Source: a virus
Lineage: Duplodnaviria; Heunggongvirae; Uroviricota; Caudoviricetes
DNA: 64,000 bases
Reading direction: 5' to 3' (one strand)
IMG/VR virus record: IMGVR_UViG_3300028886_000031
Coordinates: 1-64,000 of that record
Within the stretch, counting starts at the first letter, position 1; each line of letters starts with the position of its first letter. Under the pieces are notes generated by a model. It did not search any database. It was not told the origin of the DNA and saw only the letters and a list, made by a program, of their open reading frames with translations. Positions 10,610 to 31,776 of the stretch are shown here, piece by piece. The position numbers were made by a program, and so were the translations under genes.

Positions 10610-10740
10610 CAGCAATTGACAAACCCGACAACTATATTTTAATTATATGTCTAAAATTATATATCTATTTTTCAAGACGGATTGGATTGAGCACCAGCAA
10701 TTGACAAACCCGACAACTATATTTTAATTATATGTCTAAA
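10610..10740 (+). repeat. 46-bp exact direct repeat x2 (85-bp period)
   Basis: CAGCAATTGACAAACCCGACAACTATATTTTAATTATATGTCTAAA at 10610-10655 and 10695-10740; both copies followed closely by ATCTATTTT. Confidence 0.95.
10616..10728 (+). promoter_or_regulatory. tandem sigma70-like promoters within the repeats
   Basis: Each copy has TTGACA-N16-TTTAAT (10616-10643, 10701-10728), pointing toward the replication operon. Confidence 0.45.
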
Positions 10741-11192
10741 TATTTAAATCTATTTTGGTTAAAATGTATGTCTCGCAAGTTTTGGATTGTTCTCGATCTC
10801 GCGCCATTTTAAATTTCAATTTAAAATATAACTTACGTATTTAACTTACGTTATGGATAGACGTGCCTCAGAGTTTAAAAACTCCTTGCGTTCTCTACTC
10901 TGCGTATCTCCCTCCACTTGGGGCTCCGGGATCGCAGAATTCCGGAAAGATCGCTCTAATGCGAATGGTTTATTTTAAAAACAGAGGCGAAACTTCGCCC
11001 TGGAGCATTTGTCTACTTTGGTTCTGAAAAAGTAGAAACGGAGACTTGTCTGGGATGTTAATCCGTACTGATGAACCCCCCTTTGCATTTTGTTATCTAT
11101 TTGGACAATGAAAGTCTTTTTTAGAATAGATTTATAGAATATTCTGATTAATATATAATAAACAATCTTTATTAATGTAAAGGAGTTATAAA

Positions 11193-29031: not shown

Positions 29032-30252
29032 ATGCCAGTAACAGTAAAAGCAACAGTACCTTCAAAAAATGAAGAGAACAACAATGTCCAGGATATAGAT
29101 AACATAGATCCTGAACTCAATAAACAGCTTGATGAACAAGCTGTGGAAATTACTAGAAACATTGTAGATAGTATTAAATTAACGGAAGATGAGAAGAAAG
29201 AATTAGCAACCGAAGATGATGAGGATCTTGGTTTGCAATTAGAGTTCGATCAGTTCTTAAATGATAAAGTCGAAATTAACAACGAAGATGGCGGTGAGTT
29301 TGGTAAAGTTAAAACTGGAATAGATCTTATAGATCATTTATCTGGTGGAGGTTTTAACCTTGGTGGTTTTACAATGATTGTGGGAATGCCAGGATCATTT
29401 AAGTCTACTTTACTGGCACAGATTATTGGATATAATCAAAAGATATATGGTAAGAATATGCTCTGTGTTTATTTTGATACAGAAGCTGCTATGACAACAA
29501 AGAGACTTAAGCAACTTGGTGCTGGAAATCCTCCAATTAAACCATATGATGATGTCACGATTGAGAAGGTGTTTAAAACAATTGAAGCAATGTGTGCTTA
29601 TAAGCAGGTTAAGAACATTGTAGATATTCCTTCTCTTGTATGCTGGGATAGTATAGCAAATACAACAACGGATTCCGAAAGAGATACAGATAACATTAAC
29701 TCTACAATGGGTTTAAAACAGAAATTGTTATCCCAACTTCTTCCAAGATATCTAAGTAAACTTAAGAAGTACAATATATCACTTATTGGAATTAACCAAT
29801 TAAGAGATAGATTAAATGTAGGCATGTATGCGCCAGCACCAGATTTGATGCATACACAGAACTTTGAGATTCCTGGAGGAAAAGCCGTTAAGTTTAATGC
29901 TTCTCATTTGTTAAAGTTACAGAATAGAGGTGAACTTCAACAGGATAAGTATGAGTTTTCTGGAGTTAAGGTTGAGATAGAGTTTCTGAAGAATAAGTCA
30001 TTTACACCTTTTATTAAGGCACCTATTATTATAGACTTTAAGAAAGGTGTTTCTAATTTCTGGACTAATTATACATTACTTGCTGATAACTCTAAGTTAA
30101 AAACTGGAGCGTGGAACTATTTAGCAGAACTTCCGGATAAGAAGTTTAGAACAAAGGATGCATTTACACTATACAATACAGATGCTAGATTCAAGGAGAT
30201 TTTTGATAAAAACGTCAAGGAAGTTCTAACTTCTGTATATCCAGAAGATTAA
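29032..30252 (+). CDS. uvsX: RecA/UvsX-like recombinase
   Basis: TGIDLIDHLSGGG, GMPGSFKST, FDTE, WDS, INQLR, PGGKAVKF, KNK; SD AAGGA supports ATG at 29032. Confidence 0.9.
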   Translation: MPVTVKATVPSKNEENNNVQDIDNIDPELNKQLDEQAVEITRNIVDSIKLTEDEKKELATEDDEDLGLQLEFDQFLNDKVEINNEDGGEFGKVKTGIDLIDHLSGGGFNLGGFTMIVGMPGSFKSTLLAQIIGYNQKIYGKNMLCVYFDTEAAMTTKRLKQLGAGNPPIKPYDDVTIEKVFKTIEAMCAYKQVKNIVDIPSLVCWDSIANTTTDSERDTDNINSTMGLKQKLLSQLLPRYLSKLKKYNISLIGINQLRDRLNVGMYAPAPDLMHTQNFEIPGGKAVKFNASHLLKLQNRGELQQDKYEFSGVKVEIEFLKNKSFTPFIKAPIIIDFKKGVSNFWTNYTLLADNSKLKTGAWNYLAELPDKKFRTKDAFTLYNTDARFKEIFDKNVKEVLTSVYPED

Positions 30253-30270
30253 AAATCTCCTTTTTTAAGT

Positions 30271-30310
30271 CCTGTATTATGGCATTTTTTCGCCATAATA
30301 CAGGGTTTTT
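30271..30310 (+). terminator. intrinsic terminator
   Basis: CCTGTATTATGGC-N8-GCCATAATACAGG followed by GTTTTT. Confidence 0.85.
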
Positions 30311-30346
30311 ACCGCGATTTTTTGCCGATAAAAGTCGATTTTACTT

Positions 30347-30377
30347 TAAATGTTCATGTAAATACGATATATATATA
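30347..30377 (+). promoter_or_regulatory. putative phage promoter, class A (TAAATG-N12-14-ATATATAT)
   Basis: Same bipartite motif also upstream of the genes starting at 48003 (-) and 57792 (+). Confidence 0.5.
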
Positions 30378-30381
30378 GTTT

Positions 30382-30632
30382 TGATTACAAGGAAGAGTCT
30401 ATGGATTTAGTCTGGTTGACATCTATGGATTCGTTTGAACCTTGGTACAAAAAGCGGGTCGAGTGATCCGTTATTATGTATTGTAATTTATAGTGTGACA
30501 AAGAGTTACCACACTATGAGTTGCTAATCATTGGGGTGTGACGGGATCCCGTTCGGCGGAGAGGTTCTCCATCGGACTTAAAAGCTCCTAAGGATGAGTT
30601 GTCTAAGGGAGACAGGTAACTCTGGCCGTCAT
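30382..30632 (+). ncRNA. structured RNA of unknown family (ncRNA or 5' leader)
   Basis: Two multi-helix domains with long stems containing many G-U pairs on the + strand (see findings). Confidence 0.6.
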
Positions 30633-30662
30633 AACGTTAACAGACAAGAAAGGAAAAACCAA

Positions 30663-31136
30663 ATGAAAAAGTTCATCATGATCATCTCCACAGCGTTCGT
30701 AGCATTCCTTATGGGGTGCAGCGATCCCGAACTTGCTCCATCATCGAGCGTGCAGTCGGATGCGTCTATGCGTCTCAACGAGGCGAAGAATGCGTACGAA
30801 ATTGCCCGTAACGTGTACGAGCATCTGTCCACAAATTCTACCTCTAAGGTGGAGATCGAAAACGCAAGGAAAGCTCTTCAGCAGTTGAGTCAGAACCTGC
30901 AGAATGCTGAGAAGGAGTTCAAACTCCTCCAGAAGTGGGGTATGGCGAAATTCAATGATGCTGATTTGAATGCCATGGCAAAGCACAGATTTGAGAAAGG
31001 CTGGGATATGCACCAGTCTAAACTCTTGTCGAGCAGTGACGAGGCATTCAACATTTCTGTAGCAAGAGGTGTTGCTGCGGAAACGAATACGACCGAGTTG
31101 TGTAAGATGACGACAAGAATCCTCGAACAGAGGTAA
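30663..31136 (+). CDS. lipoprotein
   Basis: MKKFIMIISTAFVAFLMG-C signal peptide and lipobox; SD AAGGA; visibly higher GC than flanks. Confidence 0.75.
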   Translation: MKKFIMIISTAFVAFLMGCSDPELAPSSSVQSDASMRLNEAKNAYEIARNVYEHLSTNSTSKVEIENARKALQQLSQNLQNAEKEFKLLQKWGMAKFNDADLNAMAKHRFEKGWDMHQSKLLSSSDEAFNISVARGVAAETNTTELCKMTTRILEQR

Positions 31137-31185
31137 TAAAGTCGTCATCAAAAGGGTGTCTAACGTTTGTCCATTCCGGACAGCG

Positions 31186-31776
31186 CTAGGCATTCTTTTT
31201 TGCTGTTTTTTTATCTACAGCATCTAATAATTCATATATTCCGTAAGATGATAAACCTTTAGCACCTAAACCTAATGCAAATGGTGATATTTTTCTTATT
31301 ATGCTTGGCTTATCTACTTGGTTTTGTATGTAGTTATTTAAAACAGATCTCGAATAAAGTTGCTTTTCTACATCTGTTGTCATTGAATTTAGGTTCTTCT
31401 GATATTCTTCTGATGATGGAACTTTTGGGGGATCTGGATGATTTGCTACATAATGCTTATTTATATTATAGCCAACCCATGAGCCAATTCCAGTTCCTAT
31501 TAATTGAGATAAAAGAATCTTGCCAAATTTTGAATATTTAATTATATGTGTCAAAATGAAATCTATATATTCATCCCTATTCCAATTGATATCTATATCA
31601 TCAGCTAAGAATTTATATTTTTGCTCACCTGTAAGTAATAGGCTTTTCTTCAGATCTATTGGATTTGGAAATTTTTTTAGGAATATATTTAATAGTTTTT
31701 GTTGTTTATTATATGACCAAACAGTTTTTGGTTCTGCGTCCCAAAATTTACTCACTTTATTATAATCAGATTCCAT
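31186..31776 (-). CDS. glycine-zipper membrane-type protein, paralogue of 45931..46530
   Basis: Shared PKTV(W/Y)...Q.KL...K.P and EYIDF; LIGTGIGSWVG. Confidence 0.6.
   Translation of the reverse strand: MESDYNKVSKFWDAEPKTVWSYNKQQKLLNIFLKKFPNPIDLKKSLLLTGEQKYKFLADDIDINWNRDEYIDFILTHIIKYSKFGKILLSQLIGTGIGSWVGYNINKHYVANHPDPPKVPSSEEYQKNLNSMTTDVEKQLYSRSVLNNYIQNQVDKPSIIRKISPFALGLGAKGLSSYGIYELLDAVDKKTAKKNA

Follow-up and report, generated by a model that had tools for sequence, protein, structure and literature searches.

An uncatalogued, elaborately structured RNA, a probable early-mRNA leader, with a predicted inter-domain pseudoknot in a jumbo phage genome

Between a RecA-like gene and a 157-residue ORF of a jumbo phage lies an RNA that is best read as a real, uncatalogued structured RNA and an unusually elaborate early-mRNA leader. 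We propose that it is a 280-nt, two-domain, pseudoknotted 5′ leader that may well stabilise the early mRNA for an exported protein, a reading whose chances of being right or wrong we see as about equal. The DNA analysed here (the window, 64,000 nt) is the first part of a virus record of 321,650 nt (~322 kb) with 31% G+C, 15 tRNA genes and 86% of its length in ORF interiors; the sequencing runs that best match the phage come from bovine gut. Its capsid protein is closest to those of phiR1-37 and AR9/PBS1 (~26%), and the genome encodes a β′-like RNA polymerase subunit, a β′-like gene being the only one identified. The locus, all on the + strand, is laid out as follows.

29032..30252, + strand: RecA-like gene (Pfam RecA, E 2e-20), the upstream neighbour outside the cassette
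30271..30310, + strand: 13-bp hairpin and U-tract, likely terminator of the recA transcript (sequence inspection)
30345..30382, + strand: putative phage-type early promoter, with a TTTAAATG element and the core C[TG]ATATATA[TA] at 30365-30374
30383..30529, + strand: domain 1, a four-way junction closed by a helix in which the predicted +1 G is paired (folding; pair-preserving changes in relatives)
30502..30510, + strand: predicted 5′ strand of the pseudoknot, in the loop of the 15-bp arm (9 Watson-Crick pairs)
30538..30632, + strand: domain 2, with a 7-bp closing helix, arms 30551-30577 and 30585-30611 and junction 30612-30625 (folding)
30587..30608, + strand: 11-nt tetraloop-receptor-like motif, CCUAAG opposite UAAGG (post hoc pattern match)
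30615..30623, + strand: predicted 3′ strand of the pseudoknot, in the domain-2 junction (duplex energy)
30633..30662, + strand: A-rich, mainly unpaired translation initiation region, AAAGGA at 30649-30654 (pairing probability)
30663..31136, + strand: 157-aa ORF with signal peptide, predicted all-helical, of no known family
31150..31200, + strand: long hairpin and U-tract, likely cassette-closing terminator (matched by two X9 contigs)

The initial annotation had placed the RNA after a promoter motif and behind a terminator, and both are indeed present, although the upstream hairpin, visible in the sequence, was omitted by the terminator scanner; in the X9 relative A30295 is changed to G, which yields a U-G pair in this hairpin. 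Sequence inspection and the terminator scan find no terminator between leader and ORF, and by sequence and model searches the RNA is single-copy in the genome. Since no terminator precedes the ORF, two RNA-library contigs run into it, and the sibling cassettes described below share the layout, we take the RNA to be the 5′ leader of the next gene; of the earlier suggestion of a phage ncRNA, the new structured RNA thus stands and the free-standing gene does not. The two X9 contigs that match the closing terminator differ in their upstream sequences, which hints that the end of the ORF exists as two alleles or that the terminator is used more than once. Elsewhere in the window, two 62-nt direct repeats (10610-10756; 94% identical, 85 nt apart) sit in the gap in which the GC skew changes sign, a candidate origin or pair of tandem promoters.

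Folding of the + strand gives −92.4 kcal/mol (z −4.99, 0/200 shuffles as good) and that of the − strand z −1.23 (26/200 shuffles as good), so the structure is strand-specific, in agreement with the two-domain structured RNA first claimed. Coding controls reach z ≤ −4 in 1 of 90 windows. Among the intergenic gaps of the genome, however, 15 of 55 score z ≤ −4.9 when their first 300 nt on the + strand are scanned roughly, with 8 shuffles each, and the z-score alone therefore does not single out the leader gap. The RNA might accordingly be a hairpin stack with no specific role, a cassette-borne remnant whose pseudoknot arose by chance; the absence of the cassette from the syntenic site of one relative and the post hoc design of the pseudoknot null also fit such a remnant. 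We consider this very improbable, given that double changes in relatives preserve pairing, that one strand carries 18 G-U pairs and that the predicted +1 fits the 5′ helix exactly.

Folded alone, domain 1 forms the three arms originally described, with helix probabilities of 0.87-0.99: the closing helix 30382-87/30525-30 (P 0.87), CAAGG/CCTTG (0.98) enclosing a 12-bp stem (30395-406/30421-432, 0.99), a second arm (30445-49/30477-81, 0.91; 30453-60/30465-72, 0.98) and a 15-bp stem (30483-97/30510-24, 0.99). In the leader folded alone, nucleotides +1 to +4 from the predicted start are paired with P 0.86; counted from that start the closing helix has only 5 bp, and the probability of the 6-bp helix falls to 0.29 when the fold is extended to 30700, adding 38 nt of the ORF. 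In domain 2, the closing helix (30538-44/30626-32, P 0.99) and the arm 30551-77 (0.95-0.99) are as first drawn, whereas the separate AGCTC/GAGTT and GTCT/AGAC arms are drawable but 2.2 kcal/mol worse than a single preferred arm, 30585-30611, which combines CTCCT/GGGAG with GGAT/GTCT (0.96-0.97). The leader has 7 hairpin loops in its 280 nt, followed by an open initiation region (mean pairing probability 0.18 over the final 20 nt). A self-complementary 12-mer, ACGGGATCCCGT, at 30541-30552 overlaps the domain-2 closing helix and could permit an alternative hairpin, a short second knot with 30533-37 or dimerisation.

The G-U bias reported for the + strand holds, with 18 G-U among 92 pairs and C-A accounting for one of three single mismatches. 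The search against Rfam 15 returned no match in the window at gathering thresholds and nine weak ones (E ≤ 10), the best at 22.3 bits against a threshold of 60, and a tRNA/tmRNA search was likewise negative; the initial annotation, too, could assign the RNA to no known family. ROOL, GOLLD and OLE are presumably among the 4227 Rfam models. The lack of an Rfam family and the limited covariation in relatives together support the claim of a new structured phage RNA.

A long-range pairing between the two domains was overlooked in the earlier reading: 30502-30510 is the perfect 9-nt complement of 30615-30623. The predicted duplex contributes −11.9 kcal/mol at the price of a weak local hairpin of 2.9 kcal/mol, and comparable 9-bp helices occur in 0/400 and 1/2403 nulls, in which only non-stem positions were shuffled and which were devised after the helix had been noticed. 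Eight other leaders, when scanned, showed no off-structure helix of more than 7 bp, leaving this leader alone among nine with such a knot.

In the arm 30585-30611, CCUAAG opposite UAAGG agrees with 10 of the 11 positions of the 11-nt receptor consensus (PMC1464144, in part); the sole change is at the bulged position 9, mutations of which are reported as modest (PMC10243134, in part). The known receptor for GAAA likewise places CCUAAG opposite UA-GG within one hairpin, but the leader RNA has no GAAA loop, and its sole GNRA candidate, GUAA at 30616-19, lies inside the pseudoknot strand and would bind an 11-nt receptor weakly. The receptor register, which needs a bulged G, costs 7 kcal/mol more under a nearest-neighbour model blind to non-canonical pairs, and the pattern occurs three times on the two strands of the genome, once in the leader. 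We treat the motif as a lead only. A G(A/G)GU(U)-like, purine-rich word also recurs among the hairpin loops (at 30461-64, at 30503-07 and at 30596-600). Two other candidate motifs were rejected: a K-turn at the 2x7 internal loop, whose standard register disrupts the adjoining helix on inspection, and a T-box-like UGGU loop, 30413-17 being altered in relatives.

Contigs X6 and X9, from two studies, match the 3′ end of recA (~96-100% identical), the terminator, the promoter and the RNA as far as 30448, and then diverge sharply. Their next 30 letters nevertheless rebuild the second arm (30445-81): the outer helix is kept, and in the inner hairpin, read by hand and aligned on the tetraloop, G56-C69 becomes A-U, G57-C68 becomes U-A and G58-U67 becomes G-C, while the tetraloop GAGU becomes GGGU. 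The tally for this one arm is two double-sided and one single-sided pair change. The 12-bp arm is shorter by two pairs in the relatives, with losses on both strands, and its 10 remaining pairs are apparently kept, a provisional count, as two (X6) and three (X9) unlisted substitutions possibly fall in the 3′ strand. X6 and X9 represent nearly one allele, and the covariation therefore rests on about two alleles; in domain 2 nothing aligned at 80%, so that it covers one arm, in the 5′ half only. The X7 and X19 runs yielded recA sequence only.

In a further relative (L006, recA 75%) the same flanking genes have no promoter, RNA or ORF between them, and the unit thus behaves as an insertable cassette. 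L006 was the only locus with enough downstream DNA among those returned by the recA-based searches (14, 1, 1 and 0 loci; 5 of the 14 close, and one single locus distant). Searches starting from the ORF gave no locus, and blastn against 50,697 phage records gave nothing usable. Pattern searches returned four IMG/VR and three GTDB loci, all dropped as chance; two of the seven (L003 and L004) resemble coding sequence on inspection, and none except L003 came within E ≤ 1 (0.75, with model R1). R1 and R2 were each built from one sequence, which makes their negatives weak: in the phage's own genome they found only themselves, and they found no match in five other records, AR9, phiR1-37 and PALS_2 among them. 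Across 21 loci the best R1 match (18.6 bits, E 0.008; G000:199179-199331), with none for R2, was rejected as a homologue and judged a likeness of long hairpins. The sequence, pattern, recA, ORF and model searches together yielded no full-length homologue of the RNA.

The core C[TG]ATATATA[TA] has 33 matches in the genome, 26 of them intergenic; of these, 18 have a G at +18 to +20 from the motif and 23 a purine at +18. A recurrent intergenic AT-rich element with a G at a fixed distance is the layout of AR9/phiKZ-type promoters, which a virion-packaged phage RNA polymerase reads early in infection: the AR9 early consensus is AAATATATATTAT-6N-G, and phiKZ and phiR1-37 share the arrangement (PMC5312081, in part), although the core motif here differs in phase from the AR9 early promoter. 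By this analogy transcription is predicted to start at G30383, where the closing helix of domain 1 begins; a one-base insertion in the X9 relative gives a promoter-to-G spacing of +19. The promoter scan found no σ70-like + strand site at 30340-30385.

RNA-library contigs start at 30400 (study P2) and at 30397 and 30401 (study P3), whereas the DNA contigs X6 and X9 run through 30397-30401, a weak hint of a 5′ end near the predicted +1. Among the loose ends listed, none falls at these RNA-contig starts (there are 13 further loose ends). Two contigs from RNA libraries, X5 (30397-30709) and X10 (30567-30732), span the leader and the start of the ORF, although as assembled contigs they do not prove one transcript, and another covers exactly 30400-30654. 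In X3, the 30400-30654 contig has a depth of 43.4 against 7.7-8.3 for its neighbours, with 30217-30399 and 30655-30685 uncovered; the single compared contig in each of X5, X10 and X12 falls on the leader. We did not use depth in the RNA runs as evidence, since contig depth cannot rank the parts and the runs were chosen with the leader stretch. Contigs were compared for four of the five RNA runs and for four of the 19 others. The RNA-library contigs suggest that the leader is transcribed, with carry-over of DNA possible.

The unit has many siblings. High-GC3 genes of this genome lie mostly in single-gene cassettes made up of a promoter, a leader, an AAAGGA-type site, an ORF and a hairpin terminator. 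Motif and G define 21 leaders, including one with a tRNA in it and two that start at different points before the same gene; 12 of the 21 reach z ≤ −2.5, and in 10 the first four nucleotides are paired. Before genes with GC3 ≥ 0.40 there are 11 leaders, of which 7 are structured, 7 have the first four nucleotides paired and 10 keep the final 20 nt open (P ≤ 0.21); in a looser motif set, GC3 and the z of the leader are not significantly correlated (rho −0.26, p 0.08, n=46). By comparison, the early leaders of AR9 are short, and few of them are structured: z ≤ −2.5 in 2/21 against 12/21 here, and the first four nucleotides paired in 2/21 (22 motif sites, one of which yielded no leader). Siblings before GC3 ≥ 0.40 genes measure 36-135 nt and have at most four hairpins, against 280 nt for the candidate, which is the largest leader before a high-GC3 gene and not an isolated oddity.

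From the observed anatomy, the recurrence of the motif, the sibling pattern and the limited covariation, and from the predicted fold, knot and +1, we infer the polymerase, the timing and the stabilisation as follows. The phage's own RNA polymerase would start at G30383 from an AR9-like early promoter. Domain 1 would then pair the first nucleotides and block removal of the 5′ pyrophosphate and 5′-dependent decay; 5′ structure is known to stabilise mRNA by withholding the single-stranded end on which RppH and RNase E depend (PMC3997798, in part). Domain 2 and the pseudoknot are predicted to clamp the leader compactly, so that it does not mispair with the A-rich initiation region; when the knot is left out, a minor state is predicted in which the leader mispairs with the start of the ORF. 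The ORF would be translated from AAAGGA and the ATG at 30663, and the transcript would end at the 31150-31200 hairpin. As the coding part decays, the compact leader may persist as a stable fragment.

Known 5′-terminal stem-loop stabilisers resemble the leader as it is predicted to fold, with its first nucleotides paired upstream of an open ribosome-binding site, but consist of one or a few hairpins, whereas the leader has 280 nt, two multi-way junctions and a predicted pseudoknot (PMC3997798, in part). The strongest objection to a protective leader lies here: the siblings manage with much less, and 280 nt, seven loops, a knot and a receptor-like motif therefore exceed the needs of 5′ protection. 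Also against it are the nine of 21 sibling leaders that are unstructured and the drop in closing-helix probability once ORF sequence is added.

This excess is what gives weight to a different main product, a compact ncRNA released from the early transcript to act as a decoy or scaffold for a protein of host or phage, or to self-assemble in the manner of the ornate RNAs, with the ORF as a passenger; we regard this as possible but clearly less probable than a protective leader. The RNA would then stand for a class of ~250-nt knotted jumbo-phage RNAs, made as leaders, released in stable form and with a job of their own, a small counterpart of the ornate RNAs carried in a promoter-RNA-ORF-terminator cassette, which we put forward just as tentatively. 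Its elaboration well beyond that of the sibling leaders, a pseudoknot found at 1/2403 in nulls, a receptor-like motif that, with no GAAA loop in cis, could dock another molecule, and the recurring purine-rich loop word would all suit such a product, as would the maintenance of structure despite sharp divergence after 30448 and the contig of exactly 30400-30654. On the other hand, the 3′ end has no terminator or evident processing site, two contigs run on into the ORF, the layout equals that of plain cassettes, and the receptor register is energetically disfavoured in a model that ignores non-canonical pairs. The ORF family and recA relatives, moreover, occur on contigs of equal size, so that the RNA and the ORF probably move as a unit. 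We rejected an antisense role against the phage genome: no target emerged, the longest complement in the genome being 13 nt against 13-18 nt in 20 shuffles.

A switch that sets translation of the ORF in response to a ligand or protein, either riboswitch-like or an autogenous operator, with the pseudoknot forming or melting, is in our view unlikely. The leader does lie directly before the ribosome-binding site, the 3′ strand of the pseudoknot can instead fold into a local hairpin, and a 6-bp alternative helix (30599-604/30642-47) can form just upstream of the SD. The predicted ensembles, however, contain no expression platform, whether terminator/antiterminator or SD sequestration: no U-tract terminator follows domain 2, anti-SD pairings reach only ~4 bp on inspection, the SD region is predicted open, and a terminator-like match at 30453-72 is at chance level (1 vs 1.2 expected). 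Neither Rfam riboswitches nor leaders match, the downstream protein offers no metabolic clue and, having a signal peptide, is unlikely to bind its own mRNA, and both relatives lack the ATG of a uORF at 30401. The riboswitch-like role once suggested for the RNA, with no terminator/antiterminator pair, no strong anti-SD and a ribosome-binding site predicted to be mostly unpaired, is thus not borne out.

The ribozyme proposed at the same time fares no better, as no known ribozyme model matches. Multi-way junctions, long-range pseudoknots and receptor motifs are common in catalytic RNAs, and the leader's multi-junction fold, long-range pseudoknot and receptor-like motif would suit a self-cleaving or end-processing element that matures the 5′ end of the mRNA. 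Yet no Rfam ribozyme model is reached at gathering or at E ≤ 10, single RNA-library contigs are unbroken across 30400-30654 and 30397-30709, and inspection reveals no recognisable catalytic core; we find this reading very improbable.

The ORF downstream has a GC3 of 0.60 against a genome median of 0.20. It has five homologues of 31-44% identity, and the three aligned ones have signal-peptide-like N-termini, lack its lipoprotein-type cysteine and start at the methionine at 30663. Three homologues lie on contigs equal in size to those of recA relatives (57,249; 38,742; 12,983), which suggests that ORF and recA are linked among relatives whose recA identity is 72-91% or closer. For the protein, no reliable match came from Pfam, PHROGs or ESM Atlas, and its structure model (pLDDT 58, built on four sequences) matched no fold at E ≤ 0.001. 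Several alternatives at this gene were rejected: lipoprotein as a family trait (Cys absent in 3/3 aligned homologues), a start at ATG 30594 (no SD, within a helix, homologues beginning at the 30663 methionine), a leader peptide from the 21-codon uORF at 30401 (ATG lost in both relatives) and variable cargo (homologous ORFs go with recA relatives).

Of the described systems, a protective leader of this kind would act most like the 5′ stabilisers. AR9, phiKZ and phiR1-37 early promoters have, as here, an AT-rich element and a G start at a fixed distance, and AR9 UTRs, compared by description, reach 491 nt with predicted motifs of unassigned role (PMC5312081, in part). In phiKZ, 5′ UTRs are typically 31-40 nt (PMC8244752, in part), and non-coding RNAs of this phage are mentioned in a jumbo-phage review (PMC13282480, in part); phiR1-37 has one intergenic ~300-nt RNA of unassigned role (PMC4848604, in part), unmatched by R1 and R2. 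The PeSL cassettes of the T4-type phages RB49 and phi1 combine a terminator, an early promoter and an SD before ORFans and are, like this unit, self-contained cassettes inserted among core genes (PMC2839356, in part). PeSLs, however, have σ70-like promoters and a terminating stem-loop that lies at the start site or before it, and they are repeated ~50 times, whereas the leader is single-copy, far larger and structured downstream of the predicted +1, which sets it apart from PeSLs as described there.

The ornate RNAs ROOL, GOLLD and OLE, large stand-alone RNAs that form homo-oligomers and whose folds are backed by covariation, share many multi-way junctions, long-range pairing mediated by loops and a rumen or phage setting (10.1101/2024.12.08.627333, in part), but the leader has no Rfam match, lies directly before a ribosome-binding site and has no terminator, so the likeness is one of style only. 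Literature text searches, a route by which sequence-level matching is impossible, found no description of the leader RNA, and the supplementary part searched of a collection of 10,006 viral candidates (PMC10690425) held no motif match. Jumbo phages with their own polymerase must preserve early messages amid decay machinery outside their control. This genome appears to use portable cassettes for which, unlike in AR9, leaders are mostly folded from the first nucleotide, the present leader being the extreme case, with a predicted tertiary fold. Ornate RNAs are >500 nt in size, and the leader is about half that or less. If it stabilises mRNA, it would be a natural pseudoknotted 5′ shield, testable on any reporter; if it persists free, it would add to the ornate RNAs an uncatalogued member of a size suited to probing and cryo-EM.

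Other structured elements in the genome are worth recording. The region G000:C1:199149-199516 (L028 9650-10017) is promoter-driven, with long near-perfect hairpins (z −7.9); its 368 nt to the next ORF include an internal U-tract and a second promoter-like motif, and it has a weak likeness to domain 1. Multi-hairpin leaders at 158336-158464, 252888-253022 and 167544-167718 (129, 135 and 175 nt; z −4.8, −5.0 and −8.1) are paired from the predicted +1, and that at 158336 begins GATTAC like the candidate; the first two have no Rfam match. A near-identical 3′ element, whose TAGTAGCGAAATGCGAACGAC core sits in a U-tailed hairpin, recurs in three cassettes, downstream of the ORFs 190322-190660, 192165-192359 (− strand) and 195415-196122, the last a high-GC3 cassette ORF that may resemble a RAMP/Cas7-type protein. 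IMG/VR contains no exact copy of this element, which could be a terminator that is mobile or else a structured motif of small size. A long hairpin (286950-287040) lies between a promoter motif and tRNA-Met, and the motif is also found upstream of tRNA-Arg at 208904. Finally, the gaps 162806-163145, 254652-254931, 139122-139397 and 311904-312190 reach z −9 to −13 in the rough scan.
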